From a virus: a DNA stretch of 64,000 nt. This document shows, piece by piece, positions 3,537-39,464 of this stretch. Each line of letters starts with the position of its first letter. Position 1 is the first letter of the stretch. A program made the translations under genes and the position numbers. The stretch covers positions 58,430 through 122,429 of the IMG/VR virus record IMGVR_UViG_3300048999_000166. One strand, written 5' to 3'. The notes beneath the pieces were generated by a model that was given only the letters and a program-made list of their open reading frames with translations, was not told the origin of the DNA and did not search any database.

Positions 3537-3604
3537 CACGGGCGGAAGGAATCGAACCCTCGCCTGGCGGTTTTGGAGACCGCCGGCTCGCCATGAGCGC
3601 CCAT
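3537..3604 (-). tRNA. tRNA-Trp(CCA), compact D region
   Basis: Acceptor ATGGGCG/CGCCCGT, anticodon arm GCGGT-CTCCAAA-ACCGC, T arm GAGGG-TTCGATT-CCTTC; no encoded 3' CCA. Confidence 0.8.
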
Positions 3605-3609
3605 CTGGT

Positions 3610-3667
3610 GACGACAGGGCCCCGACCAGAAGGAGTTTGGGACGCCCCGGTTCGAGGCCCTGTCATC
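3610..3667 (-). ncRNA. Candidate structured RNA (58 nt, 12-bp terminal stem) between the two tRNAs
   Basis: GATGACAGGGCC...GGCCCTGTCGTC; the one non-Watson-Crick pair is G.U only on the minus strand. Confidence 0.35.
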
Positions 3668-3668
3668 G

Positions 3669-3744
3669 TAGCGGTTCCGAGATTCGAACTCGGGATCTCA
3701 AGGTTATGAGCCTTGCGGGGACGGCCGAACTCCCCTAAACCGCT
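3669..3744 (-). tRNA. tRNA-Met(CAT) (Met/fMet/Ile2 identity not resolved)
   Basis: Acceptor AGCGGTT/AACCGCT, D arm GGGG...CCCC, anticodon arm CAAGG-CTCATAA-CCTTG, T arm CCGAG-TTCGAAT-CTCGG. Confidence 0.92.
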
Positions 3745-4102: not shown

Positions 4103-5767
4103 CTAGATCGCTCCTCGTGCGAAGTCGGCCAGCAGGTTCGGGACGTTCGAGTCGAAGCCCGAGACATCCAGCGTTCCCTCGTCGGCCGGGTCCGCGATCG
4201 TGAACTCAGTCGGCGTCAGCGCGACCACCGCCAGCCGGGTGTTGATGCCGGAGGTCTCGCGGTAGCGCTTCAGAGCCTGCTGCGGGTGGATCGCCCCCGC
4301 CCACGTCTCGTTGTCGGTCAGCACCTCGATGACGTCGTACTCCTTCTTCAGCGCGCCCGCCCACAGCATGGGCAGCGCACAATCAGTGGAGCCGAACGGG
4401 AGCCGCTCGATGGTGCGTACCGCATCGTCGAGCCGCTGACGCGGGCTGAGCGCCAGCTCGCTCACGTCGGTGAACTGCTGGCTCCGACCCCAACCGCCAC
4501 CGGTGAAGCCGATGACGTCGCACGCGGGCTCCGTCGCCATCGTGAACAGCGCCAGCGCCGCCGTGACCTCCCGGCAGGTGATCGCCGAGTAGTTCGGCTG
4601 GCGGTAGCCGCCGCGACCCTTGCGGGGCGCGCCCTGAGCCGGGCTACCCATCGAGCCGGACACGTCCAGCGCGAGCAGGTGCCGCTTGTTCGAGGGCTCG
4701 AAGGTCCCGAAGGTCCGGTAGAACGCGGAGTCGAGCGCGTCCACGATCTGACGCTTCGGGCTCCAGGTGTTCTCCCCCATCATCGACTGGCCGCGGCTGT
4801 AGGTACGCAGCGCGACCAGCGCGTTGATCGGGTGGATCCGGGCCTTGCGCAGCTTGTCGGTGTCCTGCAGCTGCGCGGTCACCGTCGCCAGCGACTGCGC
4901 CGAGTTGAACACCCCCAGGTTCGTCAGCCGCGGCAGCTGCCGGATCAGCGCGGTCATCGGGACACCAGCGGCGATCAGGGCGTGCCACACCTCCGCCTGA
5001 GTCACCGCGGCGTCGGGCAGCGCCTCCCAGGGCAGCCGGAAATTAGTGACCAGCTCGACCCACTGCGCGACGGTGGTCGCCTCCTGCGCCTTCTCGAACG
5101 CATCCACCAGCGCGGGCTTGACCTTCGGGTCGCTGTCCTTGCCCTCGTGCTTGACCATCCAGTCGAACAGCGCCTTGCGCTCCGGCTCGTCGGTCTGCGG
5201 GTGGGACAGGCGCAGCAGATCGCGGTGGCTCCAGCCCTCGCGCTGCCGGTACTTGATCGCCTGGTAGGCCACGGACTCGACCGGCTTATCGAGGTACCAG
5301 TTGCGCACCGCCCGACGCAGCCCACCGCCCCAGCCGCGGAACTGCTCCGCGTAGCGGGTGAACAGGTAGAGGTGCGTGCCGGTGCGGCACACCTTCGAGA
5401 CCGCATCGTTGGCCGCCCGCCGGGCCGCCTCTGTGCCGCCCAGCGCCGACACAGCGGCGAGCGCGAAGATGGCCGGGTTCTGTCGCGGCGCTCGACCCGC
5501 GACCGAGATCTCGACGATGCGCTCGACCAGCCACTCACCTCGGTCACGCGCGGCGGCCAGGATGACCTGCGCGTTGTCCTTGGTGAGGTCGGCCTCGGTC
5601 ACGTAGTAGGTACCGCCATCGGTGCCGAGGGTGAGGAAGCGGTTGACCCGCGTCTCATCGCCGACCTGGAAGACATAGCCGCCCGCGTTGTTCTTGACCT
5701 GGCGGGGGTCAGCCTTCTCCGACTGGGGAGTCTTGCGGGTACTGATTGCGGTCAGTGCGTCGGCCAT
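4103..5767 (-). CDS. rsr: Ro60/Rsr RNA-binding protein (TROVE + vWA domains)
   Basis: QVKNNAGGYVF, RFLTLGTDGGTYY, KYRQREGWSHRDLLRLSHP, LRNL-like IRQLPRL, vWA DVSGSM and TDNETWAG motifs; RBS GAGAGGAAAG before ATG 5767. Confidence 0.95.
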   Translation of the reverse strand: MADALTAISTRKTPQSEKADPRQVKNNAGGYVFQVGDETRVNRFLTLGTDGGTYYVTEADLTKDNAQVILAAARDRGEWLVERIVEISVAGRAPRQNPAIFALAAVSALGGTEAARRAANDAVSKVCRTGTHLYLFTRYAEQFRGWGGGLRRAVRNWYLDKPVESVAYQAIKYRQREGWSHRDLLRLSHPQTDEPERKALFDWMVKHEGKDSDPKVKPALVDAFEKAQEATTVAQWVELVTNFRLPWEALPDAAVTQAEVWHALIAAGVPMTALIRQLPRLTNLGVFNSAQSLATVTAQLQDTDKLRKARIHPINALVALRTYSRGQSMMGENTWSPKRQIVDALDSAFYRTFGTFEPSNKRHLLALDVSGSMGSPAQGAPRKGRGGYRQPNYSAITCREVTAALALFTMATEPACDVIGFTGGGWGRSQQFTDVSELALSPRQRLDDAVRTIERLPFGSTDCALPMLWAGALKKEYDVIEVLTDNETWAGAIHPQQALKRYRETSGINTRLAVVALTPTEFTIADPADEGTLDVSGFDSNVPNLLADFARGAI

Positions 5768-5789
5768 GGTCTTTCCTCTCATGAGTGGA

Positions 5790-5902
5790 CCCGCGCGGGC
5801 ATGCACATATCGAGACTGGAGGTCCCACCTCCAGCAGGTAAAGCCTGCCTTGGTGCGACTCCCGAAGCCGGAAGATAACCAGCCTCGTCCGGCCCGCGCG
5901 GG
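5790..5902 (-). ncRNA. Y RNA-like unit 1
   Basis: 11-bp terminal stem, GGGCCGG 5' motif, CTGGTTATC, CCAG, 3' CATGCCC. Confidence 0.7.
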
Positions 5903-6221: not shown

Positions 6222-6352
6222 GGATGGGCATGGAGTTCGACGACCGGTACGGAGGCCTAGGGGTGGGAGTCGAACCCACGCCTCGGGACCGGAGTCCCGC
6301 GTGCTCCCGGACTGCACTACCCCAGAGGTAACCGACTGCCTTCGGCCCATCC
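6222..6352 (-). ncRNA. Y RNA-like unit 5 carrying a complete non-permuted tRNA cloverleaf (6256-6326)
   Basis: Scaffold motifs plus acceptor TCTGGGG/CCCTAGG, D arm GTGC/GCAC, anticodon arm with 6-nt loop CTCCGG, T arm GTGGG-TTCGACT-CCCAC. Confidence 0.8.
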
Positions 6353-7742: not shown

Positions 7743-8807
7743 CTATGCTACCGCTAGGGCGCTGGCTTCGGTGGTGCGCAGCCCGACGATCTCGTCGGGC
7801 AGTGAGCTGGCCAGGAACTCCTCCAGCGGCAGGCAGAGGTCCATCCGCTGAATGCACACCCCGACCTGGTAGGTGCCCACCCGGTCGACGTAGAGCCGGA
7901 CCCCGTAGAAGCCCTCCTGGCAGTCCTTGTCGTTGTTGAACCGGCAGCTCGCGCACGTCTCCGGCAGTCGCACCGGCCGGATCTCCTTGAAGTAGACGGT
8001 GCGCCCGTCGGGCAGCTCGTAGCTGGTGCGCGCGCCCGACACCCCAGCGGTTACGTAGTGGGCCCGCGCGACGGCCCCACGCTCGGCGAGGATGGCCTCG
8101 ATCGCCTCGATGGAGATCGCCCCGTGGTCGAGGGAGTTGAGCAACCGCACGGACAGCTGGGGCGAGTACTCGTCCAGTAGCCGGTGTACCCGGGCGGCGT
8201 GGCTGTGGTCGAGCACCACGATGTTGGCGTCCGCCCGCACCCCGTGCGCCTCGCAGGTAGCGATCGACTCCTTCAGCGCCGCGATCTTGCGCTCCGCCAG
8301 CTCGACGTTACGGAAGCGGGTGTGCTGCACCTCCGCCAGCTCCGCCGCCGTCGTGCCGAAGACCGAGAAGTTGACCTTACGCAGCCCAGCGGAGGCAGCA
8401 GCCGGGATGACCGCCGCACCCCGCTCCCCATTCGAGGTCATCCGCACCCCGTAGCCGGCGTCGGACGCGAGCTGGGTCAGCTGCGCCAGCGATGGATGCA
8501 GCGTGGGCTCACCGCCGGTGAAGTGCACCTCCGACAGATCGAGCGCCTCGCGCAGCGAGGTGAGAGCTTCGGTGAAGCGCTCGTCGGGCCGCACCACTCC
8601 GGGCAGGAACGTGGCGCCATTGGTGGCCGCGTAGATGGACATCCGGCCGCTCGGACCGGCGGTGGTGAAGTCGCCCACGGGGCGCCGACGGTTGTCGGCG
8701 ACGACCGGGGTTCCTTCGTTGTGGCAGAACGTGCAGGTGAACCCGCACGGATCGTGGATCTTGATACGGAGAGTGGCGTCCTTCTCGACGATGGTGGGCA
8801 AGTCCAT
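7743..8807 (-). CDS. Radical SAM protein, MoaA-like
   Basis: LRIKIHDP-CGFTCTFC-HNEG, FTGGEPTL, TSNG, C-terminal CASC-x7-C cluster; RBS AGGA before ATG 8807. Confidence 0.88.
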   Translation of the reverse strand: MDLPTIVEKDATLRIKIHDPCGFTCTFCHNEGTPVVADNRRRPVGDFTTAGPSGRMSIYAATNGATFLPGVVRPDERFTEALTSLREALDLSEVHFTGGEPTLHPSLAQLTQLASDAGYGVRMTSNGERGAAVIPAAASAGLRKVNFSVFGTTAAELAEVQHTRFRNVELAERKIAALKESIATCEAHGVRADANIVVLDHSHAARVHRLLDEYSPQLSVRLLNSLDHGAISIEAIEAILAERGAVARAHYVTAGVSGARTSYELPDGRTVYFKEIRPVRLPETCASCRFNNDKDCQEGFYGVRLYVDRVGTYQVGVCIQRMDLCLPLEEFLASSLPDEIVGLRTTEASALAVA

Positions 8808-8847
8808 GGCTGGGATCCTTTGATCGGTTGATGTGCTGCAGCGCGAA

Positions 8848-8878
8848 GCAACCCCCCGAGCTGTGCTCAGGGGGTTGC
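8848..8878 (-). terminator. Terminator-like hairpin downstream of whiB
   Basis: 13-bp stem GCAACCCCCTGAG/CTCGGGGGGTTGC (G.U on the minus strand). Confidence 0.55.
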
Positions 8879-8889
8879 TCGCCGGGGCG

Positions 8890-9129
8890 CTAGGCGGCTG
8901 TCCGCTCCAGTCGAAGCAGCCGGCGCCCATCCGCGGTCACGCCACCCCAGATGCCGACGTCGATGCCCTCATCAAGGGCCATCGAGAGGCACTCTTCGCG
9001 CACCGGGCATGCCGAGCAGACCGCCAGGGCTTCCTGGGCGAACTCGGGCTTGGTGGACACCGGGAAGAAGATCTCCGGGTCGACGCCGGTACGGCAGCTG
9101 GCGCGGTGACGCCAGTCAAAGGTGGTCAT
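8890..9129 (-). CDS. whiB: WhiB-family Fe-S transcriptional regulator
   Basis: W...ASC, PEIFFP, CxxCPV.xEC, GIWGG motifs. Confidence 0.95.
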   Translation of the reverse strand: MTTFDWRHRASCRTGVDPEIFFPVSTKPEFAQEALAVCSACPVREECLSMALDEGIDVGIWGGVTADGRRLLRLERTAA

Positions 9130-9919: not shown

Positions 9920-10039
9920 TCAGCGACCTCGGTCCAGGCACACGTTGCAGATGACCTGACCCCGCCGGATGAGGCGCCCGCACTCCGCGCACTGCTCGAA
10001 CCCGAACTTGTGCAGCAGCCCGACCCACCAGCGGCTCAT
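9920..10039 (-). CDS. Small Zn-finger-like hypothetical protein
   Basis: ATGA overlap with the deacetylase stop; CxxC...CxxC. Confidence 0.45.
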   Translation of the reverse strand: MSRWWVGLLHKFGFEQCAECGRLIRRGQVICNVCLDRGR

Positions 10040-10827
10040 CGTCGGTCCCAGGGCGCGACACCCGCGTTGTAGGTCAGGCCCTCCCAGACGTACACCGGGA
10101 CGTTGGTGGGCACGATCCGACCGGCGCACAGATCCTTCGCGGCCAGGGTCTGCGCGATCAGCGGCACCGCGGTGACCGCGGCCTGATCGGCGTCGTGCAT
10201 CAGGATCACGTCACCGGCCTTCATGCCGGCGACCACCTTCGTCGTCTGGGCAGCGGTCTCCCCGTCGACCCAGTCATCGGGGTCAGTCGTCCAGATGACC
10301 TCGGTGAGCCCCTGGCTAGCCGCGATTGTCCGGATGCCCGGGTTGGTGTCGCCGTAGGGCGGTCGGAACAGCGTCGGGGTGTAGCCGGTGGCCGCCTTGA
10401 TCTGATCGACGGTGGACGAGATCTGCCAGTTGATGACGTCGGGGCTCAGCGTCGGAAGGTGCGGGTGGTCCCAGGTGTGCACCCCGATCTCCATGCCGGC
10501 GTGGCGCACATAGGCCGCGTAGCCTGGAGTGTCGCGCACCTTGTAGCCGATCATGAAGAAGGTCGCGTGCAGCCCGTTGCGCTTGAGCGCATCCACCAGC
10601 GGCTGGGTGAACTCGGTCGGTCCGTCGTCGTAGGTGATTCCGACGTAGCCCTTGCACACCGGCGCCGTCACCGTGTGGATGACCACCGGCGCCGTCTCGA
10701 CGGCCAGGTTCGGCCGCAGCGTCTTGAGCGCGACCACGAACATGCTCGACGTCAGCACCACCGCCGTCACGAGCACGATGGCGACCATCCACGCCGAGTG
10801 CGGACCCCAACGTTGCTTCATGATCAC
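10036..10827 (-). CDS. Polysaccharide deacetylase (NodB/CE4), N-terminal membrane anchor
   Basis: TYDDGP, ATFF, HTWDHP, LFRPPYG, ILMHD motifs. Confidence 0.93.
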   Translation of the reverse strand: MIMKQRWGPHSAWMVAIVLVTAVVLTSSMFVVALKTLRPNLAVETAPVVIHTVTAPVCKGYVGITYDDGPTEFTQPLVDALKRNGLHATFFMIGYKVRDTPGYAAYVRHAGMEIGVHTWDHPHLPTLSPDVINWQISSTVDQIKAATGYTPTLFRPPYGDTNPGIRTIAASQGLTEVIWTTDPDDWVDGETAAQTTKVVAGMKAGDVILMHDADQAAVTAVPLIAQTLAAKDLCAGRIVPTNVPVYVWEGLTYNAGVAPWDRR

Positions 10828-11855
10828 TCCCTGTGTCGAAGCGAGAGCTGGTGGCGGTAGGCCTCCAGGGCGCGGGGAGCGTCCCCGATCGGGAGCCGAG
10901 TACCGGTCACGTCATCATCGAAGTAGCCGGAGTAGCTGACCTTGTTGTTGGCCAGGATGGTGGAGATCCCATCCACGAACTGCGGGTTGTCGCCACCGCC
11001 CGGAGCGGCTGGGCGGTCCATCGGGACGAGCCCCCACTCCGGGATCGAGATCGGTTTGTGGTGGGCGGCGGCGAACGCGATCATGACCGCCGGTCCGTTG
11101 GCGCGCGCGTACTCCTGGTCCCACCGAGCGAGATCGCCAGAGGGTGCGCCGGCTGTCATCTGATCGAGGTCGTAGAAGTCGAAGCCGATGATGTCCACGA
11201 CATCATCGCCGGGGTAGTACCAGTCGAGCGGGACGTTGTCGAAGCCCGCCGCCACATTCCAGTCGAAGACGAAGGAACTGTTCGGGACCGCCTTCATGGC
11301 CAGCGCCGCGTGTCGCCATCCCGCGACCCACTGGCGCTGCGCCGCTCCGGTATCCCCGAACCAGTAGCGCTGCCAGTTCCCGTTGCCCTCGTGGGCGAGA
11401 CGGATCACCGAGTCCCCCATGCCCGCCTTGACCAGCTCGACGCCGAGCGCGGTGAAGTAGCTGTCGTACTCACCAGCCGCGGCCCTGGACCGCCAGTCCG
11501 GCGGTGCGTTCTCCGGCACGAACCCGGGCGAGATCACGACGCGGCGGTTGGGGTCGGCCTTCTTCCAGCTGACCCAGTCCTGGTCGCCCTTCGAGGTGGT
11601 GAACCAGGGGTGCGACCAGTTGTCCCAGCTCGTTGCCTCGTCGTTGAACAACATCGAACAGTCGTAGTCGTGCCCGACGAGGTGCCCCAGGTTGGCCAAG
11701 CGACTCACCGAGTGCTGGCTGTAGGCGCAGTAGCGTCCGGTAGCGGTGGTCCAGCCGCTACCGGACGCCCACGCCGACGTGGTCAGCACCAGGGCCGCCG
11801 CAAGGGCCACCGTGATCGCCGCCCAGAGTCCATGGCGACGAGTAATGCCGTACAT
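10824..11855 (-). CDS. Secreted glycoside hydrolase, GH26-like
   Basis: Signal peptide; IRLAHEGNG.W, WYYPGDDVVDIIGFDFYD, KPISIPEWG. Confidence 0.85.
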   Translation of the reverse strand: MYGITRRHGLWAAITVALAAALVLTTSAWASGSGWTTATGRYCAYSQHSVSRLANLGHLVGHDYDCSMLFNDEATSWDNWSHPWFTTSKGDQDWVSWKKADPNRRVVISPGFVPENAPPDWRSRAAAGEYDSYFTALGVELVKAGMGDSVIRLAHEGNGNWQRYWFGDTGAAQRQWVAGWRHAALAMKAVPNSSFVFDWNVAAGFDNVPLDWYYPGDDVVDIIGFDFYDLDQMTAGAPSGDLARWDQEYARANGPAVMIAFAAAHHKPISIPEWGLVPMDRPAAPGGGDNPQFVDGISTILANNKVSYSGYFDDDVTGTRLPIGDAPRALEAYRHQLSLRHRE

Positions 11856-11884
11856 GGGGTTCCCCTCATGATCAGATCGGGAGA

Positions 11885-12022
11885 TCAGGGCCGCGGGTGG
11901 TCGCCGGAGGGCCGCACGAGCTGGTACATGGAGATCAGCACGAACGCGACCGTGATCGCGGCGAAGACCATCCAGACCGAGTCGAGCAACAGGTTCGCGC
12001 CCGCTCCGGCGGGTAGTGCCAT
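11885..12022 (-). CDS. Small single-pass membrane protein in the polysaccharide cassette
   Basis: 45 aa MALPAGAGANLLLDSVWMVFAAITVAFVL..., fills the GT2-GH26 gap; not in the ORF track. Confidence 0.5.
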   Translation of the reverse strand: MALPAGAGANLLLDSVWMVFAAITVAFVLISMYQLVRPSGDHPRP

Positions 12023-12042
12023 AGCGCTCTTCTGGCCGTACA

Positions 12043-13113
12043 TCAGCGATCAACTCCTTCAGCTACGTACTGCATGGCCCAGCGGTCCTTGCGCCGTCGG
12101 GTAACTCGGCTGGTCAGTACCGAGCACCACGCGGCGAGGAACCAACCAGCCCTCAACCACGCGAAGAACTCCTGGGGCAACAGCAGCGCCGCGAGCAGTA
12201 CGTCGCGGCGGTCCCGGTGCGGGATCCGCAGCGCCTGCTTGACGTCGTTAGCGATGAAGAACGCCGGGGCGACCAGCCAGAGCCAGGCCATGTGCAATGA
12301 CCCGTTGGCCAGCGCCAACAGCGTGAAAGCCACCCAGCTGACCCGAACCGCCGCGGCGAGCATCCCGGCGGCCTGTTGCCGCCAGTCGGTGTAGGTCAGC
12401 TTGGTGACGCCGAAGGACAGCAAGTCCTCGACAGTCCCGACCTGCCACTTCATCCGCTGCGCCCACAACGAGCGCACTGTGCGCATCGCATCGGTGTAGG
12501 CGCGGACGGTGGGCGAGATGTGGCAGTGGTAGCCGAGTTGCCGGATCCGGTAGGTCAGCTCGAAGTCCTCCACCATGCTGGCGTAGGTCCACGGGCCCTC
12601 CCGGTCTGCGCGGTACGCGATCTCGCGTAGCGCCGCGTTCCGGATGACGCAGCCGGTGCCCGCCAGCACGCTGGTCCAGCGCCTGCGCAGTCCGGTGTCC
12701 GTCCACTTGGAGAACTCGGCACGCTGCAGCCTGACGAGCAGGCCGGTTCCGAGCATCGTGAATTTTGATGAAGAGCCACCGAGGTAGGGGTCGGCGGCGA
12801 ACTCGGACTCCCAGTCGCGCACCGCGTGCGGCGGCAACTCGGTGTCGGCGTCGAGGCACATCACCAGGTCGGCGTCACGGCACGTGGCGTGCCAGGCCAT
12901 GTTGAGCGCACCCGACTTGCGGTGGAGGTTTCCGACGGTCTTGAACACCGTGACCAGCGAAAACTCGGACGCGCGCTCGAAGGTGTCGTCGGTGCAGTTG
13001 TCCGCGATGACGACGATCTTGTCGGGGATGCGCTCCTGCGCGAGCAGCGCTCGCAGGGTCGCTTCGATGGATCCGGCCTCATTATGGGCAGGGATCAGCG
13101 CAACGATCTTCAT
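12043..13113 (-). CDS. Processive GT2 glycosyltransferase (polysaccharide synthase-like)
   Basis: PAHNE, DAD, EDFELT, QRMKW (QxxRW-like) and C-terminal TM helices. Confidence 0.9.
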   Translation of the reverse strand: MKIVALIPAHNEAGSIEATLRALLAQERIPDKIVVIADNCTDDTFERASEFSLVTVFKTVGNLHRKSGALNMAWHATCRDADLVMCLDADTELPPHAVRDWESEFAADPYLGGSSSKFTMLGTGLLVRLQRAEFSKWTDTGLRRRWTSVLAGTGCVIRNAALREIAYRADREGPWTYASMVEDFELTYRIRQLGYHCHISPTVRAYTDAMRTVRSLWAQRMKWQVGTVEDLLSFGVTKLTYTDWRQQAAGMLAAAVRVSWVAFTLLALANGSLHMAWLWLVAPAFFIANDVKQALRIPHRDRRDVLLAALLLPQEFFAWLRAGWFLAAWCSVLTSRVTRRRKDRWAMQYVAEGVDR

Positions 13114-13213: not shown

Positions 13214-14005
13214 CTACCGGCCTAGCAGTACTGCTCCAGCGAACTCCGGGGCGCGACCGCGATGCACGTTGGCGATCCGCACGAAGTTCTGCTCGTCGGT
13301 CATCAGCGCCAACATCTGCGCCAACGCGACGTCTTGATCAGGTAACCACTGCTCACTCATGCTGGGGTGGGCGCACAGCCTGCCCGCAGCCTCACCTCGT
13401 TCATCCAGGTACACCACGTTGCCGGCGTTACCGCGCTCGATGCGGTAGCGGTTGCCCTCCGACCCGGTGCACACGAAGTGACCTTCAGCTTCGTACTCCG
13501 CCCGCTGCTCGGGGGTCAAGAACTCCATCAAGGTGTTACGCGCTCGTGTCCGAGCGGCCTCCTGCGCGGCGATGCGCGCGGTGCGCTCCTCGTTCTGCCG
13601 CAGGATGCGCGCGGCGCGGGCCGCCTCTTCCTCGGGGGTGCGCACGCGAGGAGGGTCGTAGTAAGGGACCTGGAGCGGCGGGGGGTCGTAGAAGATGGTG
13701 TTATTGCCGGTGCCCATGGTCGTCCCCCAGGTGACGTTGGCGAGGTTGCCGAACGCGGTGGTCGCGGTGGTGATGGCGCCGGAGAACCCCTGCATCGCGG
13801 TGGCCAACGAGTAGGTCACCGTGGAACCGGCGTTCTGCCAGTCGGTCCACTCCACGCCTCCGGCGGTCAGTCGCCGTACGCCCCACGCCCGCTCGGCGAG
13901 CTGTTCGGTGCGCCGGGCGAGCCGCGGGCCAGGCTCGTCAGCAGGATGAAGCGGCGCCCGTACCAATGGGTACGAGCGCCGCTTCATCACCCTACGAGGG
14001 GGCAT
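13214..14005 (-). CDS. Uncharacterised conserved-Cys domain protein (paralog 1), partner of a GG-terminated protein
   Basis: C-terminal domain LTPEQR..GSEGNRYRI..GNV..GRLCAHP..LPDQD..LAQML.L.TDE..F..IAN, shared with three ORFs at 36845-39116. Confidence 0.8.
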   Translation of the reverse strand: MPPRRVMKRRSYPLVRAPLHPADEPGPRLARRTEQLAERAWGVRRLTAGGVEWTDWQNAGSTVTYSLATAMQGFSGAITTATTAFGNLANVTWGTTMGTGNNTIFYDPPPLQVPYYDPPRVRTPEEEAARAARILRQNEERTARIAAQEAARTRARNTLMEFLTPEQRAEYEAEGHFVCTGSEGNRYRIERGNAGNVVYLDERGEAAGRLCAHPSMSEQWLPDQDVALAQMLALMTDEQNFVRIANVHRGRAPEFAGAVLLGR

Positions 14006-14014
14006 CGTGAGTTC

Positions 14015-14233
14015 CTACCGGGCCCGACGTTCCTGGACCCACCGAACGACGTCGCGGGTGCAGTACCAGGCGAGGAATGCCACCCCTCCGAGGCACAGCA
14101 AGACCCCGATCAGGTGCACCAGCGGTGCCGCGATCAGCACGAGAAAGCCGAGAACGAGCGCACCTACGCCCATGAGGGTCGGGATGTCGAGCAGCTTGCG
14201 GGAGTAGGACTTCGAAGGCTGGGGCTCACTCAT
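14015..14233 (-). CDS. Small two-TM membrane protein
   Basis: 72 aa, hydrophobic, between the GG protein and paralog 1. Confidence 0.65.
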   Translation of the reverse strand: MSEPQPSKSYSRKLLDIPTLMGVGALVLGFLVLIAAPLVHLIGVLLCLGGVAFLAWYCTRDVVRWVQERRAR

Positions 14234-14236
14234 CTC

Positions 14237-14464
14237 TCAGCCACCCACAAGCTGCGGGCTCATCAGGATGCGCTCCGCGTCCGGGTCGAAGTTGCGCAGC
14301 AGCTCACCGCGTGAACCGTCCGTGCGCGTCTTGTAGGCCAGATAGCGCTTCGCCTTGTGCTCGTCGAAGTTCTTCCGGGCCAGCTCGACCTCGGTGGCGT
14401 TGTTCTTGTCCCACTCGATCCGGGTGTCCCCGGTGTTGTTCTGGATCAGCAGTGTGCTCGTCAC
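14237..14464 (-). CDS. Small ubiquitin-like (beta-grasp candidate) protein A ending in VGG
   Basis: 75 aa; GTGA-coupled to the phosphoesterase; ends PQLVGG-stop; paralog at 39150-39464. Confidence 0.7.
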   Translation of the reverse strand: MTSTLLIQNNTGDTRIEWDKNNATEVELARKNFDEHKAKRYLAYKTRTDGSRGELLRNFDPDAERILMSPQLVGG

Positions 14465-15057
14465 GCGCTCTCCTTCATTGGTTGCTCGGCGGAGCGGAAA
14501 GCCTCCACCAACTCATCGAGGTGCATGGGGGTGAAGTCCCGCACGTCTACCCCGACGTTGACCTGTCGGCCGCTCTTGGCCCACGCGTCGTGGACGTGTC
14601 CGTGGGCCAGCCACAGCCCGTCGTCGCGCAGCCGGTACTGGTTGTAGCGTTCCTGGCTGGTGTGGTCGCCCGCATAGGGGAAGTGGCTGAGCATGATGTT
14701 CTGGTTGCCGTCGAGGCGGCGCCGCGCGTAGGTCTGCACGGAGTCGAAGAACGACATCCACAGCCCGATGTGCTTGTAGGCGTCGCGCTCGCCTGACCAG
14801 CACTTATCGTGGTTGCCCGCGATCAAGTGCTTGCTGCCGTTGCACCGGGAGATCTTCTCTAGGATCCCCATCTCCGAGCCCATCCCGACGTCACCGAGGT
14901 GCCATACCTGATCGTCGTGCTTGACGACCTTGTTCCAGTTCTCGATCAGGGTCTCGTCGTGCTCCTCGATGGTGGCGAACGGCCGCCAACCCTTGCCGGT
15001 GGCCGCCATCGCTCGGTGCCCGAAGTGGCTGTCCGCGGTGAACCAGACGTTGCTCAT
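14461..15057 (-). CDS. Calcineurin-like metallophosphoesterase
   Basis: DSHFGH, LGD, GNHD, HGHVH motifs. Confidence 0.92.
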   Translation of the reverse strand: MSNVWFTADSHFGHRAMAATGKGWRPFATIEEHDETLIENWNKVVKHDDQVWHLGDVGMGSEMGILEKISRCNGSKHLIAGNHDKCWSGERDAYKHIGLWMSFFDSVQTYARRRLDGNQNIMLSHFPYAGDHTSQERYNQYRLRDDGLWLAHGHVHDAWAKSGRQVNVGVDVRDFTPMHLDELVEAFRSAEQPMKESA

Positions 15058-24289: not shown

Positions 24290-25333
24290 TCAGTTCAGCA
24301 GGAGGTTGTCGTTCGTTTGCGCCCGCTTCCGAGTGACGCTGGTCGCCAGCGCCGCACCGATGAACACGATGCCCAGCGAGCCGGTCAACCACTCCGGCAG
24401 ATCCACCCCGTAGAGCTTCAGCATCATCACCATGCCCAGGAACAAGATCGCCCAGTGCGCGCCGTGCTCCAGGAACTCGTACTTGGCCAGCGTGCCGGTG
24501 CGGACCAGGTGCACGGTCATCGACCGCACCCACATCGCACCGGCGCCCAGTCCGGCCATGATCACTAAGACGCTGGTCGTAATGGCGAACGCGCCGATCA
24601 CCCCGTCGAAGGAGAAGCTGGCGTCCAGCACCTCCAGGCGTACGAACATGACAGCCGCGGCGGCACCGACCAGGGTGGTCAGCTTCGCGTGCCCGTCCTC
24701 GTCGTCGCTGTCGAACACCGCACCGAACAGGTCGAGTCCGACGTGCAGCAGCACCCCGATGATCGCGGCGGCGAACACCGCTGTGCGCTGCGCCGGCTCG
24801 ACCGTGAAGAACGCGATCACCGCGACCAGCAACATCACGAAGATGGTGATGTTGTCGAACCGACCCAACGGCGCCAGCCGCGACTCCAGCCAGCCGATCC
24901 AGTGGAGATCTTTCTCGCTGTCGAGGAAGTAGCTCACTCCGATCATGAGCAGGAAGGTGCCGCCGAACGCGTCGATCATCGGGCCGGCCTCGGCCAGGTG
25001 CTGCGCGTATACGGCCGGCTGGTGCACGGCGAGGCTGACAACCTCGGTGAAGCCCAGCCCGGCCGCCACCTGCACGATGAAGATCGGTAGGGCGAAGCGG
25101 ACCACGAACACGGCGAACACGATGCCGACGGTCATGAAAGCCCGCTGCCAGCCCGGGGACAGGCGCTGGATCAGCTTCGAGTTGACGACAGCGTTGTCGA
25201 AGCTGAACGTCACCTCCAGCGCGGTCAGGATCATGACGGTGAGCAGGCTGAGCCAGCCGCCGAACGACGCCACGGCTGCCCAGGCCAGCAGGGTGATGAC
25301 TGCGGAGGGCCCGTAGATGGCCCACAGATTCAC
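24290..25333 (-). CDS. terC: TerC-family (DUF475-like) integral membrane protein
   Basis: LEVTFSFDNAVVN, LEVLDASFSFDGVIGAFAIT, GLGAGAMWVRSMT, LEHGAHWAI. Confidence 0.9.
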   Translation of the reverse strand: MNLWAIYGPSAVITLLAWAAVASFGGWLSLLTVMILTALEVTFSFDNAVVNSKLIQRLSPGWQRAFMTVGIVFAVFVVRFALPIFIVQVAAGLGFTEVVSLAVHQPAVYAQHLAEAGPMIDAFGGTFLLMIGVSYFLDSEKDLHWIGWLESRLAPLGRFDNITIFVMLLVAVIAFFTVEPAQRTAVFAAAIIGVLLHVGLDLFGAVFDSDDEDGHAKLTTLVGAAAAVMFVRLEVLDASFSFDGVIGAFAITTSVLVIMAGLGAGAMWVRSMTVHLVRTGTLAKYEFLEHGAHWAILFLGMVMMLKLYGVDLPEWLTGSLGIVFIGAALATSVTRKRAQTNDNLLLN

Positions 25334-25359
25334 CCGGGCCGAAGCCTCGGTCTCTGCGA

Positions 25360-26139
25360 TCACGACAGCACTCCGGCCTTCGTCGCGGCGGCGACCCAGG
25401 AGTCCCACTCGTCGGCCATGGCGTCGGCGAACTCCATGTCGGACACGGACGCGGGGTCGGCGAACGACTTCGCGTCTACGTTGTCGACGAGTCGGAGATC
25501 GGGGTTCATGTCGTCGAGGTCGTTCAGGTAGGGGACGTCACGGATGGCCAGGAACTTCACGAACACCGGATAGCCGGCCAGCTCCACCACGATCCTGGTC
25601 GCGGCGGACTGAGAGTCTGGGTTCCCGTCGGTGATGACCACACAGAAGATCGGCTCGTCGGTGGTCTTCGCCAGGTCCCGGACCGCGACCAGGGCCTTCG
25701 CCAGGTCGGTGCTGCCCATCTGGCGTGGCTGCCAGATCTGGTTGTCGACGACGCCACGGTAGTTCTCGACGGTCACATCGACGGTGGGGTGCAGGACCGA
25801 GTCGAACGGGATCACCGGGACGGTGCCATCGACGTCGATCTGCAGCGCGAAGCCGAGCACACGCTCGACCAACGTCTGCACCTTGCCGTTGGAGTAGTCA
25901 GCGTGCATCGAGCCGGAGTGATCGAGCACCAGCACGGCCTGCGCGCGGATGCCGGCCAGGCCCCGCTTGCTCAAGGCGATACCGGCCTTGTCGGCGCGCT
26001 TGGCCAGATCGATGTGGCCGGCGTCGCGGACCTTCGAGAGGTTGATCGCGGAACTGCCGGTGGCGTCCTTGGTGAGGTTGATGGTCCGTGCCGGACCGGA
26101 GGTGGGAGTGGGTTCGGACTTGCGGCTGAACAAGCTCAT
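25360..26139 (-). CDS. vWA domain protein, Ter-associated (vWA-TerF-like)
   Basis: LVLDHSGSM, VQTLVERVL, VVITDG, FVKF, LDDM..R.VDN..F. Confidence 0.85.
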   Translation of the reverse strand: MSLFSRKSEPTPTSGPARTINLTKDATGSSAINLSKVRDAGHIDLAKRADKAGIALSKRGLAGIRAQAVLVLDHSGSMHADYSNGKVQTLVERVLGFALQIDVDGTVPVIPFDSVLHPTVDVTVENYRGVVDNQIWQPRQMGSTDLAKALVAVRDLAKTTDEPIFCVVITDGNPDSQSAATRIVVELAGYPVFVKFLAIRDVPYLNDLDDMNPDLRLVDNVDAKSFADPASVSDMEFADAMADEWDSWVAAATKAGVLS

Positions 26140-26174: not shown

Positions 26175-26756
26175 TCAGCCGATGTGGTACGCGGTCACGA
26201 GCCCCTGCAGCTCGTCCTTGAAGCCGTCTCCGATGGCCCGGAAGTTCCAGGACTGGTCGCGGCGGTAGAGCTTCCCGAACACCAGCGAGTTGACTCCGGC
26301 GTTGGTGTCCTCGGTGAGGTCGTACCGAGCGAGTTCGGTGTTGCTGGACTCATCGATGACCCGGACGAACGCGTTCTCGACCAGCCCGAAGTTCTGGTCT
26401 CCGCGTGCCTTCGCCTCATGGATGGTCACCGCGACCACCAGCTCGGTGACCTCCGCCGGCACCCGGGCGAGATCGACCACGATCTGCTCGTCGTCGCCGT
26501 CGCCACCGCCGGTGAGGTTGTCGCCCTGGTGCACAACCACGTTGTCCGGGGCCGCCATGTGGTTGTAGAAGACGAACCACTCGGGGCTCACGCACGCGCC
26601 CGAGGCGTTGAGGCCGATGACGGAGGCGTCGAGGTCGTAGGCGGCACCGTCGGTGCGTCGAACGTCCCAGCCGAGACCGACGCGGACCTTGGCGAGGGTG
26701 CCGCCCGCCTCCTTGGTGAGGTCGACCTTGCCGCCCTTGCTCAAGTTGATAGCCAT
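26175..26756 (-). CDS. terD: TerD-family protein (frame stays open upstream to 27191)
   Basis: INLSKGGKVDL, VGLGWD, YDLDAS, FVFYN, H.GDNLTG.GDGDDEQI, NFGLV.NAFVRV. Confidence 0.95.
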   Translation of the reverse strand: MAINLSKGGKVDLTKEAGGTLAKVRVGLGWDVRRTDGAAYDLDASVIGLNASGACVSPEWFVFYNHMAAPDNVVVHQGDNLTGGGDGDDEQIVVDLARVPAEVTELVVAVTIHEAKARGDQNFGLVENAFVRVIDESSNTELARYDLTEDTNAGVNSLVFGKLYRRDQSWNFRAIGDGFKDELQGLVTAYHIG

Positions 26757-27194
26757 GGGAAATCCCTTCGTTGGTTTGCCGCTGATGACCACGCCCGATG
26801 GAGCGGTGGCCAGGGTCATGCCGATCTCACTCAGCCACGGATGCAGCGGGGTGTCGGTGAGCTTGGAGAGTTCGTGAGTATCGCGGTAGGGATCGGCGTC
26901 CGATGCTCGACAGATTCCGGTCGCTACCACAGAGGTGCCGTTCCATTGCCCGATCTGCATCCAGTCGGCGGGGTCGGCGGCCATGATGACCGCGCCCCAG
27001 TGGTTGGTCAGGGAGGTGGGGATGTAGGCGTCGCGGCCCGCCATCAGATCGGCGGAACGACCGCCGGCCCTGCTGACGAACTGGTGGAGCAGGTACCAGC
27101 CTCGGTTGGTGACCAGGAGTGATCGAGCCGCGAAGTCGCGGGCGGTGAGGCCGAGGTCAGTCCGGTTGGCGGGCGTCCAGTGAGTAACCATGGG

Positions 27195-36844: not shown

Positions 36845-37321
36845 CTACCGTCCGAGGATTCCTTCGCAGGCCTCTCGGAAGAACTGTCGGATATGCCAGA
36901 GCCAGCCAGCCTTGACGCACGGAGGCCAGTATCCCCCCATCTCCAGGTTGGCCTTGCGCACGAACGCCCGCTCGTCGGTGACCAGCGCCAGGAACTGCCC
37001 GAGCATCAGATCCTCATCGGGGATCGGGCGGCGAGCCCCGTTGGGCCACTGATCGGGCGCCGCGCAGAGCGACCCGCGAGTTCGTCCGGCGCTGTTGAGC
37101 CACGCGACGTTGAAGATGTGTCCTCGGGAGATCCGGTAACGAGTCCCCCGCGAGCCGGTCAGCTCGAAGTACCCGAGCCGCGCATAGTCCTCGCGCTGCG
37201 CGTCGTCGAGCATCCGCATCAGCAGGGCGAGCGCGTTGCCCTGCGGGGTGCCGGGGTAGGCGTGCATCCACCATCGGCGGTGTTCGTCGCGCACATACTC
37301 GTCGAGGGAGAAGCTCACCAC
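36845..37321 (-). CDS. Conserved-Cys domain protein (paralog 2, essentially domain only)
   Basis: GSRGTRYRI, NV.WL, GSLCAAP, IP.ED..LGQFL.L.TDE..F...AN. Confidence 0.8.
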   Translation of the reverse strand: MVSFSLDEYVRDEHRRWWMHAYPGTPQGNALALLMRMLDDAQREDYARLGYFELTGSRGTRYRISRGHIFNVAWLNSAGRTRGSLCAAPDQWPNGARRPIPDEDLMLGQFLALVTDERAFVRKANLEMGGYWPPCVKAGWLWHIRQFFREACEGILGR

Positions 37322-38217
37322 GGCCCCCCGATGCGGCCGATCCGGTTGAACTGGTAATACCGGCCACCGGGATACGGGATGCCCGCGTAGTTGTCAGGTC
37401 GGCGCACCATGGTCGCCACCAGCTCCTTGCACACCGCGCAGTCGCACGGGGCGACATCGGTCAGCCGCCCCTCCGCGGCCATGCGACGAGCGTAGGCGGC
37501 GTGCTTGGGGTGGTGCGTCGGGTAGTTGCCCGAGAACAGGTTCGCACTATCGAGGAAGGAGTCCTCGTCGGTGATCAGCTGCAGCATCTGCCCGAGGAAC
37601 TGGTCCTCCACCGGCAGGTAGCGCCCATCGGGGGTGTAGCCCTTCGGATAGGCGCAGTACCTGCCGGCATCGATGCGGGAGCTGCCGCCAAGAGCAACGG
37701 ACCTGCGCCAGAGGACGTTGCCGCTCGCGTTGCCGTCGGTCTTGATCCGGTAGAGCGTGCCCTTCGAGCCGACCACCTCGAAGTACTTCCAGTCCCGGTA
37801 GGTCTTGCGCTGGTCCTCGTTCAGGAAGCTCCTCAAGGTCTCCTGGGCCTTCGCCTGGGCGGCGGAGCTATCCTCCGTGATCCGCGCCCGCGCCTGCATA
37901 GGCGCACCACCGATACGGACATCGACCCAGCCGTTGTCCAGCCCGACGAGTCCAGCCCGCAGTCGATCTATCTCTCGGGTGAAGGCCTCCAGGGCATTGA
38001 CGGCCGGGTAGTTGTCGAACCGAATCTCGACGCGCGCTCCGTCGACGAGAGCGTGCTCGGCCGTGCCGGTCACCGTGTCGTTGTCGTTGAGCCGCAGCCC
38101 AAGCGCGACCAACCGGGTATCGCGCGCCCGCTTCCTGGCGGCGGTCTGGCGGGCTAGCTCCCGAGCACGTTCCCGATCTCGTTGCCGCTGCTGCCCCATC
38201 CCGAACATCGCGCTCAC
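37315..38217 (-). CDS. Conserved-Cys domain protein (paralog 3)
   Basis: GSKGTLYRI, GNV, GRYCAYP, LP.ED..LGQML.L.TDE..F...AN; GTGA-coupled to paralog 4. Confidence 0.8.
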   Translation of the reverse strand: MSAMFGMGQQRQRDRERARELARQTAARKRARDTRLVALGLRLNDNDTVTGTAEHALVDGARVEIRFDNYPAVNALEAFTREIDRLRAGLVGLDNGWVDVRIGGAPMQARARITEDSSAAQAKAQETLRSFLNEDQRKTYRDWKYFEVVGSKGTLYRIKTDGNASGNVLWRRSVALGGSSRIDAGRYCAYPKGYTPDGRYLPVEDQFLGQMLQLITDEDSFLDSANLFSGNYPTHHPKHAAYARRMAAEGRLTDVAPCDCAVCKELVATMVRRPDNYAGIPYPGGRYYQFNRIGRIGGPW

Positions 38218-39116
38218 CACCGTGCCGAGTACTTGCGCTTGTGCAGCGGGTGCACCTCGCCATCGAGGTGGTGTGCGATCCCCATCCAGCGCCCCTCGTC
38301 GGTCACGATCTCCAGCATCTGGGCGAGGATGTGATCGGCCAGCGGGAGGTTGCGTGCGGCGAGAGTGTTGTAGGTGTCGGAGTGCGCGCAGAGCTGTCCG
38401 CGCTTCTTGTCGTCCTTGTCCAGCCACCACACGTTGCCCGAGGGGGAGCCGTAGGTCTTCGCGCCGAACACCCGGAAGCGGGTACCCAGCGAGCCGGTGA
38501 TCACGAACCAGTCGTTGACGTCCAGCGAGGTGCGCTGCTCCTCGGTCAGGTAGCGGCGCAGCGTCGCCCAGGCGGTCTTGTCGGCCTTCGTGACCGCCTC
38601 TCGGCGCTCGCGCTGGTGGTGTTCGCGCAGTGCATCCTCGCGGTCGCGCTCGGCCTTCCAGGCGTTGAAGCGACGGGTAGCCCAGCCGCGCTGGGCGGGC
38701 GTCGCGGACGGGCGGGGGAGGCTGATCTTGACCATCGTGTAGCTCTGGCGGTCGTAGCGGTCGACGTCATCACCGCGGGAGACGCCGTGCTCGACGGAGT
38801 CGACGTCGCCGCGGATCGCGGCGCGCAGGTCGTCCGCGGTGATGATGTAGCCGGGGGCGGCGGTGGAGAACCGGAAGCAGAAACGGCGTACTTCTTGGCC
38901 GTCCTCCTCCGCGAACAGCAGATCCCCGATCGGGTTCATGTACGCGGAACGGATGTCGGGCGAGCAGAGCACGAACTTCAGGTCTTCCCGAATGGTCATG
39001 CGGCCGATGACCGCTTCGGGGTCGTAGGCCAAGGGTGGGTGGGGAGCGGCCGACGGGCCCGTGGCATCCACGGGCCCGTCGGTTCCGTCCGCTCCCCCCG
39101 AAGGAGGTTCGGTCAT
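38214..39116 (-). CDS. Conserved-Cys domain protein (paralog 4)
   Basis: GSLGTRFRV, GNVWWL, GQLCAHS, LP.AD..LAQML...TDE. Confidence 0.8.
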   Translation of the reverse strand: MTEPPSGGADGTDGPVDATGPSAAPHPPLAYDPEAVIGRMTIREDLKFVLCSPDIRSAYMNPIGDLLFAEEDGQEVRRFCFRFSTAAPGYIITADDLRAAIRGDVDSVEHGVSRGDDVDRYDRQSYTMVKISLPRPSATPAQRGWATRRFNAWKAERDREDALREHHQRERREAVTKADKTAWATLRRYLTEEQRTSLDVNDWFVITGSLGTRFRVFGAKTYGSPSGNVWWLDKDDKKRGQLCAHSDTYNTLAARNLPLADHILAQMLEIVTDEGRWMGIAHHLDGEVHPLHKRKYSARW

Positions 39117-39149
39117 CGTGCTACTCTCTGTTGTTAGGTAAGGCTACGC

Positions 39150-39464
39150 TCAGCCGCCCACGGTCTGGGGGACCATGATGACGGCCGCGGCGGTGCTCGC
39201 CTCATCCCAGCTGCGGGTGATGACCGCGTCGTTACCGGTGTCGGTCTCGCTCGCGGTCATGTGGGCCCGGTAGCCCAGCGCCAGCATCTCCTTGAACTTC
39301 GCCTCGGCCAGCGCGAGGTCGTGAGCGACCACCGCGTCGGCGACGCGACCGGCGTCGGAGCGCCCGTCGGCGAACGCCTCGTCCACCGCGGCGATCAGCT
39401 CGGGGCTGGCCTCCCAGGTGAGAGTGGTGTCTCCGGTCGAGTCCAGCACGTGCAGAGTTGCCAT
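39150..39464 (-). CDS. Small ubiquitin-like (beta-grasp candidate) protein B ending in VGG
   Basis: RBS AGGAG; TLHVLDSTGDTTLTW...A...F..M...GY.A...VIMVPQTVGG-stop; paralog of 14237-14464 with an insertion. Confidence 0.7.
   Translation of the reverse strand: MATLHVLDSTGDTTLTWEASPELIAAVDEAFADGRSDAGRVADAVVAHDLALAEAKFKEMLALGYRAHMTASETDTGNDAVITRSWDEASTAAAVIMVPQTVGG

Follow-up and report, generated by a model that had tools for sequence, protein, structure and literature searches.

A Gly-Gly-terminated protein and a conserved-cysteine partner form a mobile two-gene module of large uncultured phages and some plasmids

Can a phage that encodes a ubiquitin-like protein and a cysteine-bearing partner, and no enzyme to activate them, possess a protein tagging system of its own? 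This question was raised by a stretch of 64,000 nucleotides of viral DNA, hereafter called the window, which represents bases 58430-122429 of IMG/VR record IMGVR_UViG_3300048999_000166. The record comprises 122,429 bp with direct terminal repeats, is rated 100% complete and has a GC content of about 65%. In a region termed locus A, the window encodes a short protein with a terminal Gly-Gly (Ubl1, a candidate ubiquitin-like (Ubl) protein) and, two genes downstream on the same strand, a protein with a C-terminal cysteine-containing domain (CysA). A reading made from the sequence alone had seen in this pair a minimal phage-encoded Ubl system. The limits and ending that it had given for Ubl1 were confirmed (Table 1), and so were the position of the partner and its motif G-x-(L/Y)-C-A-x-(P/S), which occurs as GRLCAHP in CysA and in three further variants in its paralogs. 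The pairing also recurs as described at 36845-39464 (locus B), where Ubl2, a homolog of Ubl1 (BLASTP E 6e-8), is accompanied by the three paralogs CysB1, CysB2 and CysB3. A search of the whole genome found exactly four Cys domains, all of them in loci A and B.

Two linked protein families

Relatives of the Gly-Gly protein were collected in a word-indexed search, which returned 38 proteins of 74-99 amino acids. All 38 end in Gly-Gly, and the invariant positions of the family are G12 and D13 (in a TGDT turn), W18, A29, G50, D60, G74 and G75; Ubl2 aligns with the family and has its Gly-Gly at the end. Among 47 Ubl tails listed from related loci, Gly-Gly stands directly at the stop codon in 42, Ala-Gly or Ser-Gly in four, and Gly-Gly plus five residues in one, while a distant Ubl of Virus Rctr197k (see below) ends in ..IPG. 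The last Gly is present in all free-standing Ubl proteins among the 47. Given the AG, SG and IPG tails, it is therefore this last Gly that is the retained feature, as in known Ubl proteins. A chance origin of the Gly-Gly ending was rejected because the ending is shared by all 38 homologs and is rare in the 122-kb genome, where it was found in the two Ubl genes and one antisense open reading frame (ORF) among 304 coding-like frames. The sole member with residues past the Gly-Gly (L009:4968-5240 (+), IMGVR_UViG_3300029171_000002; ..KGG followed by ALGYD) looks like a precursor that would need trimming.

Neither the window proteins nor the 38 family members matched a Pfam, NCBIfam or PHROG family (E up to 5), and PADLOC gave no match for any of the module proteins. 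No sequence relative was present in PDB, where profile searches against the sequences gave chance-level rows only, and an Atlas search returned nothing but unnamed viral clusters. A by-eye alignment with ubiquitin, which the sequence-only reading had presented, was not supported as homology: no sequence or profile method ties the family to ubiquitin, ThiS or MoaD. The only tie is the predicted topology. The AlphaFold model of Ubl1 (predicted local distance difference test score (pLDDT) 87.6) shows a beta-beta-alpha-beta-beta order with strands at residues 2-9 and 12-19, a helix at 23-38 and strands at 41-46 and 65-70, followed by a C-terminal tail of low pLDDT, i.e. a flexible one. Its structural matches were nearly all beta-grasp or ubiquitin-roll domains with modest scores (best Foldseek E 0.068), and in Foldseek searches against PDB nothing reached E <=0.001 for the models of either Ubl1 or the Cys domain. 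The model thus gives Ubl1 what appears to be the right beta-grasp topology, with membership in the superfamily unproven.

The partner family was explored with a profile built from the four Cys domains of the window, which share 39-45% pairwise identity. When run against 1.84 billion cluster representatives, the profile found 4753 representatives at E <=0.001 and 866 at E <=1e-10. The domain measures about 105 amino acids (DNA 13217-13540 in CysA) and is usually located at the C-terminus of proteins of 150-350 amino acids whose N-terminal parts are unrelated; sometimes it stands alone, as a protein of about 100 amino acids. Numbered along the domain, the Cys of the GRLCAHP motif is residue 56. 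In a set of 112 sequences, G26, G29, C56, P67 and Q75 are conserved throughout, Q12, N41, D70 and E83 in 111, and S27, R33, W44 and D82 in more than 90%. In an independent set of 51 partner domains from the loci, the Cys was likewise found in every member and D70 in 50. Such a pattern of conservation resembles that of an enzyme. A classical Cys-His protease is unlikely, and was rejected, because the candidate His58, two positions past the Cys, is not invariant: it occurs in 94 of the 112 and 35 of the 51 sequences and is missing in two of the window paralogs.

No Pfam, NCBIfam, PHROG or PADLOC match was obtained for the Cys domain, a Pfam scan of the 112 proteins gave nothing consistent, and the Atlas matches were unnamed, mostly bacterial clusters. 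Weak matches of module proteins to LTXXQ, Cas6 and membrane DUF families were below cut-off and were discarded.

Linkage of the two families was determined in 43 viral contigs retrieved via the Gly-Gly protein, in which Cys genes were detected with a profile made from the 112-sequence alignment. In 42 of these loci the Cys-domain gene is the next gene downstream of the Gly-Gly gene on the same strand, often overlapping or adjoining it. The remaining locus (L040:2369-2980 (+), IMGVR_UViG_3300049215_000234) has a single ORF in which a Ubl without Gly-Gly is directly continued by the C-terminal half of a Cys domain; the fused part keeps the Cys, the LP and the long helix with its ..AN motif. It is either a natural fusion of Ubl and partner or the remnant of a deletion. 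Two partners were found in locus L018 and two tandem modules in L039, which compares with the three partners of locus B. When all coding-like ORFs of the 43 loci were clustered, no third conserved gene emerged, and the next commonest cluster was represented in only seven loci. Among homologs of the window pair the terminal Gly is thus retained and the Ubl is accompanied by the Cys domain, so that the pairing itself has held up.

The pair was also detected in a 595-kb uncultured phage and on plasmids. A conjugative Bradyrhizobium plasmid encodes a 73-aa protein ending in HLVGG-stop, followed after 18 bases by a 140-aa Cys-domain protein; transporter and malonate decarboxylase genes flank the two, and the Cys-domain protein matches 12 Bradyrhizobium plasmids. 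One plasmid copy of the pair is located at 126049-126711 of NZ_CP064702. From the strict linkage, the lack of a third gene and the varied phage and plasmid settings it was therefore concluded that the Gly-Gly protein and its Cys partner are a mobile, self-contained two-gene module of large uncultured phages and some plasmids. A conserved Ubl/Cys pairing had been anticipated correctly; it is not confined to phages.

A distant copy of the module is present in Virus Rctr197k (KX853510.1), a 197-kb virus from an enrichment culture, at L055:2006-3366 (+). Its protein Rctr197k_113 (142 aa) has a weak extra match to the Ubl profile ahead of the main one and may hold two beta-grasp units. It is followed by a 268-aa Cys-domain protein and, 1.2 kb further on, by a second one; the region is bordered by CRISPR arrays and remnants of transposases. 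BFVD models of this virus match the Cys domain at template modeling (TM) scores of 0.75 and 0.60.

Cultured phages carrying the module were not found when three family members were compared by tblastn with 50,697 phage records; a match in Pseudomonas phage D6 (E up to 10) was rejected because it lies on the non-coding strand. In Agrobacterium phage Atu_ph07 a structural look-alike was noted in BFVD (A0A2L0UZL2, E 0.016), which serves as a lead only: in the genome of that phage the Cys profile found nothing, and the Ubl profile matched weakly over 41 residues (E 0.009) of a 250-aa protein. No published description of a phage- or plasmid-borne module of a Ubl and a Cys partner without an activating enzyme (E1) was found in full-text searches of the literature.

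Predicted structure of the Cys domain and of its complex with Ubl1

The AlphaFold2 model of the Cys domain (pLDDT 93.3) consists of helices at residues 3-7 and 10-19, a four-strand meander (21-25, 31-35, 42-45 and 51-56), a long helix (68-89) and a last strand (91-95). Cys56 ends strand 4 and is followed by a loop and the long helix. Judging from the hairpin register, Asn41 probably lies beside Cys56. About one third of the top 50 structural matches in the whole of PDB were UBC, RWD or UEV folds, none of them at E <=0.001; they include Ubc9, FANCL, UBE2E1, UBE2F, the bacterial conjugating enzyme (E2) of 8tyz, the CdnG-E2 of 8hsb, and Cap2. The HPN motif is missing from the Cys domain, whose near-invariant Asn41 sits at the start of strand 3. 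No match to the Pfam families UQ_con or Prok-E2 was found in the window proteins or the 112 family members, and Prok-E2_B gave one match in 401 genomes.

Whether the Gly-Gly tail can reach the Cys had been left by the sequence-only reading to complex prediction, and the prediction did place it there. For Ubl1 and the Cys domain the interface score ipSAE was 0.67 (0.65-0.67 in three runs), compared to 0.07 for the best control; the mark applied to this score was attained in 58 of 80 solved complexes, as against two of 110 mismatched pairs. The runs share at least 89% of their contacts, and the partner pLDDT was at least 83. Ubl1 contributes residues 6, 8, 10, 13, 42, 44, 46, 49-55, 67 and 69-75 to the interface, and the Cys domain contributes residues 39-40, 56-64 and its long helix, with the segment 69-75 of Ubl1 placed against 56-64 and this helix. 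Contacts predicted with the highest certainty include those of Cys56 with Gly74 and of Ala57 and His58 with residue 73. The prediction supports, without showing it, that the Ubl binds the Cys domain with its tail threaded to the Cys.

In the predicted complex Ubl1 faces its partner with strands 1 and 3, the last strand and the tail. This is the face that ubiquitin turns to the crossover helix of the E2 in a closed E2-ubiquitin conjugate, a resemblance which may in part reflect the memory of the model. Covariation between Ubl tail and partner groove was inspected in 47 pairs and revealed subgroups, e.g. tails of the type R/K-Q-x-x-GG together with H39, A58 and G74 of the partner; such subgroups cannot be separated from shared descent.

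Since binding alone is what the complex prediction supports, the two proteins might form a purely non-covalent pair. The Gly-Gly tail would then plug the groove of the Cys domain, like MoaD in MoaE or like an inhibitor, nothing would be tagged, and the Cys would serve another chemistry or none. An invariant terminal Gly would suit recognition of a free carboxylate by a pocket, the phage encodes no activating enzyme (see below), and a small two-gene unit in varied phage and plasmid settings recalls toxin-antitoxin or inhibitor-enzyme pairs. However, a structural contact seldom keeps a Cys in 112 of 112 and 51 of 51 sequences along with a polar ring of Q12, N41, D70, Q75 and E83. Nor was any toxin-antitoxin family of PADLOC or Pfam matched, and the use of one Ubl for the three partners in locus B is more in keeping with a modifier common to them than with a dedicated inhibitor. 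A non-covalent pair was therefore regarded as unlikely, though far from negligible.

Activation of the Gly-Gly protein and possible modes of action

The profiles ThiF, Prok-JAB, JAB, ThiS and UQ_con found nothing at E <=1 in the complete 122-kb phage genome, whereas ThiF, Prok-JAB and ThiS were positive in most of 14 control genomes. The earlier statement that the window contains neither an E1 nor a JAB peptidase thus applies to the entire phage. A survey of other carriers covered 20 phage records, 12 of which are at least 90% complete. Further, a metagenome-assembled genome (MAG) labelled Mycobacterium sp. that contains a 96% identical locus also contains two ThiF-family genes, one of them in a frame of 436 codons.

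The reading favored here, to which a probability of roughly 0.45 was assigned, sees in the Cys domain an E2-like carrier that holds the phage Ubl on its Cys, the Ubl being activated by a host E1 or by another route. The domain would act as a minimal E2 that carries the Ubl as a thioester on its Cys, and the Ubl would be handed to targets whose choice would lie with the variable N-termini of the partners. The activating step would not be phage-encoded; its likeliest source is a host adenylating enzyme of the MoeB, MoeZ or ThiF type acting on the free Gly-Gly end. An E2-like role fits because of the invariant Cys with its polar ring, the free Gly-Gly, the model with the tail at the Cys, and the use of one Ubl with several partners. 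If targets are set by the differing N-termini of the partners, this would explain why one Ubl is followed by three partners in locus B.

Several points weigh against this reading, and they concern activation, which is a gap because no E1 is encoded by the phage and because ThiF scored above cut-off in only two of the 12 carrier phages that are at least 90% complete. In both of these the ThiF gene lies outside the retrieved module locus and is not adjacent to it. In addition, we know of no MoeB- or ThiF-type enzyme that passes a Ubl to a foreign E2. The more far-reaching proposal of a two-gene viral Ubl conjugation system, in which the Cys is loaded without a phage E1 (by capture from a host MoeB/MoeZ/ThiF-type enzyme or by a new ATP-independent route) and host or phage proteins are tagged, was considered possible rather than probable.

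A way around the missing E1 has been described in Serratia marcescens, where an E2 uses C101 and H87 to cleave off the residue that follows G406 in its cyclase and, with neither E1 nor ATP, makes a thioester between G406 and C101 as well as isopeptide bonds (bioRxiv 10.1101/2022.05.25.493364; PMC12948482). By analogy, Cys56 could cut between Gly74 and Gly75, free the terminal Gly, form a thioester without ATP or E1 and ligate the Ubl to Lys. Apart from this published precedent of an E1-less E2, it speaks for self-activation that the Serratia E2 and the Cys domain have the same order of elements, that the predicted contact of Cys56 is Gly74 and not Gly75, and that one homolog has five residues after its Gly-Gly. 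Yet a residue that is split off would not be kept as an invariant Gly, and the Cys domain has no invariant His. We consider self-activation of this kind improbable.

A host enzyme of the MoeZ/ThiF type might also be used differently, by turning the Gly-Gly protein into a thiocarboxylate whose sulfur the Cys protein relays as a persulfide or acyl-disulfide for thio-modification by the phage. Such a sulfur-carrier pair appears very improbable: a ThiS or MoaD profile match was not obtained, the partner is not MoaE, ThiG, TtuA or a rhodanese by any profile, and no conserved sulfur-using enzyme is encoded nearby.

Finally, the pair could serve as a decoy or in counter-defense by mimicking or hijacking the Bil, Bub or type II CBASS (a signaling system against phages that is based on cyclic oligonucleotides) pathways of the host, e.g. 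by soaking up E1 or E2 proteins or by tagging defense proteins. Ubl pathways of the host do act in anti-phage defense (PMC10557695, PMC11601596), and the module is located on mobile elements, in variable accessory regions. This idea, which was judged quite improbable, concerns the biological role of the module and is compatible with an E2-like Cys carrier.

Genomic setting and comparison with known systems

Coordinates of the genes in both loci are compiled in Table 1. The four genes of locus A are tightly packed head to tail. The GTG start codon of ubl1 overlaps the stop codon of the phosphoesterase gene (GTGA), which indicates translational coupling, and AAGGAG precedes the start. The phosphoesterase is not among the conserved neighbors of the module in the 43 loci and represents local operon context. 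Pfam gave only weak, sub-threshold membrane DUF matches for the 72-aa protein, which has no conserved equivalent among the 43 related loci and is not a conserved part of the module. In locus B the start of CysB2 is uncertain (GTG at 38220 or 38217, or ATG at 38208), and its open frame extends to 38430, overlapping CysB1. The module genes have a coding-type GC content at third codon positions of 0.83-0.91 and are equipped with Shine-Dalgarno-like sequences.

Table 1. Genes of loci A and B (positions in the window; E-values of hidden Markov model (HMM) matches are independent E-values, i-E).
Gene product	Position	Strand	Features
CysA	13214..14005	-	263 aa; variable N-terminal part and C-terminal Cys domain
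72-aa hydrophobic (membrane-type) protein	14015..14233	-	between Ubl1 and CysA; identified as an ORF from the sequence
Ubl1	14237..14464	-	75 aa; beta-grasp type (predicted); free C-terminal Gly-Gly, ends PQLVGG-stop
Metallophosphoesterase	14461..15057	-	Pfam Metallophos_2 E 7.9e-7; PHROG 547 E 1.9e-52
CysB3	36845..37321	-	158-aa paralog, barely more than the domain; GSLCAAP; Cys-domain HMM i-E 1.4e-37
CysB2	37315..38220	-	paralog with C-terminal extension; GRYCAYP; Cys-domain HMM i-E 1.3e-34
CysB1	38214..39116	-	300-aa paralog; GQLCAHS; Cys-domain HMM i-E 2.6e-33
Ubl2	39150..39464	-	104 aa; Ubl1 paralog with insertion of about 29 residues; ends PQTVGG-stop; Ubl HMM i-E 1.2e-19

The host of the phage is probably an actinobacterium because the Mycobacterium sp. 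MAG holds contigs with near-identical locus A genes (96% protein identity). Misbinning of phage contigs into this MAG is an alternative origin of the match that has to be kept in mind. Two of its contigs (TPA_asm: Mycobacterium sp. isolate SMAG_U5706; L045 and L046, DATAZN010000368.1 and DATAZN010000617.1) contain the same four Cys-domain genes and represent this phage or a near twin, either binned with the host or carried in it. A scan of genome contigs found only this same phage inside the MAG, and a sample of 300 further genomes from the class to which the MAG belongs yielded no copy of the module.

Genes for envelope sugars are located directly downstream of locus A on the same strand and encode a glycosyltransferase of family 2 (12043-13113), a GH26-like protein (10824-12053) and a deacetylase of polysaccharides (10036-10827). 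The gene of a 494-aa AAA/STAND-type ATPase (33873-35357 (-); Pfam AAA E 3.9e-13, weaker matches to nSTAND3 and AAA_16) is situated about 1.5 kb downstream of locus B. Elsewhere in the window, a Ro60/TROVE and vWA protein is encoded at 4103-5806 (-) (Pfam E 1e-44 and 1.9e-51). A tRNA-like element at 6255-6326 (-), about 450 bases from the Ro60 gene, scored 47 bits with the Rfam tRNA model and was given an aberrant two-base anticodon 'cc' by ARAGORN; it may represent the tRNA-like part of an RNA that partners the phage Ro60 in the manner of a Y RNA. Further, genes for tRNA-Trp and tRNA-Met were found at 3538-3744, one for a radical SAM protein at 7743-8930, and two stress genes of the tellurite-resistance type on the minus strand, encoding a TerC/DUF475 membrane protein (24290-25408) and a TerD-domain protein (26175-27191).

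In the papers cited here, prokaryotic Ubl conjugation is described as host defense in Bil, Bub and type II CBASS, each with an E1 of its own save E2-CBASS (PMC10557695, PMC11601596, PMC12948482). In contrast, the mobile element studied here carries a modifier-like protein and a Cys partner and no activator. If conjugation takes place, either sulfur-carrier E1s of the host would be hijacked for tagging or a Gly carboxylate would be activated in a new way, and phages would have their own means of tagging proteins. The module, whose family members in soil phages and on plasmids number in the thousands, would then be a major unrecognized branch of prokaryotic protein tagging that serves mobile elements and not the defense of the host. 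Even a purely non-covalent docking would provide two large protein families with a first clue to their function. The pair is small and easily expressed, and the Bradyrhizobium plasmid copy resides in a cultured organism.

In its way of working the module is most like the Ubl-E2 pairs of Bil, Bub and CBASS, yet it is a member of none of them, because it has no profile match, HPN motif, E1, JAB or other peptidase, or cyclase. Bil (BilABCD) is a host defense operon that needs an E1 of its own (BilD) and has its Ubl precursor trimmed by a JAB peptidase (BilC) (PMC10557695; PDB 8tyx, 8tyz), whereas the module is phage- or plasmid-borne, lacks E1 and JAB in the phage, makes its Ubl with a free Gly-Gly and has no sequence relationship to Bil. 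Bub uses oxyester (Ser) intermediates and its own E1-peptidase fusion (PMC11601596; PDB 9eav); here, the invariant residue is a Cys, and neither an E1 nor a peptidase is encoded. A free Gly-Gly end is also a property of carriers of the MoaD/ThiS type. Compared to MoaD, ThiS, CysO and TtuB with their MoeB, MoeZ or ThiF enzymes, however, the module has no ThiS/MoaD profile match and no linked adenylating enzyme, and its partner is unrelated to MoaE, ThiG, CysM and TtuA.

With the beta-grasp modifiers in general (ubiquitin, SUMO, Urm1, SAMP, MoaD, ThiS and BilA) the phage Ubl shares the flexible Gly(-Gly) tail, without a profile match and without a cognate E1 encoded with it. With the E2/UBC superfamily the Cys domain shares a Cys located after strand 4 and before a long helix, and a Ubl tail predicted to lie at this Cys, again without HPN. 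The sole E1-less system of this kind that was found described in the literature is E2-CBASS (CdnG plus E2; PDB 8hsb). Unlike there, no Cys-His pair is conserved here, an extension past the Gly-Gly is present in only one of 47 Ubl tails, and no CD-NTase cyclase or effector is linked, as judged from the lack of a conserved neighbor and of a PADLOC match. What the two systems have in common is the order of elements (one helix, then four strands with a Cys close to the last of them, then another helix), an E2-like protein that binds the C-terminal tail of its partner beside the Cys on its own (here by prediction), and a conserved C-terminal Gly as the point of attachment (here a proposed one).

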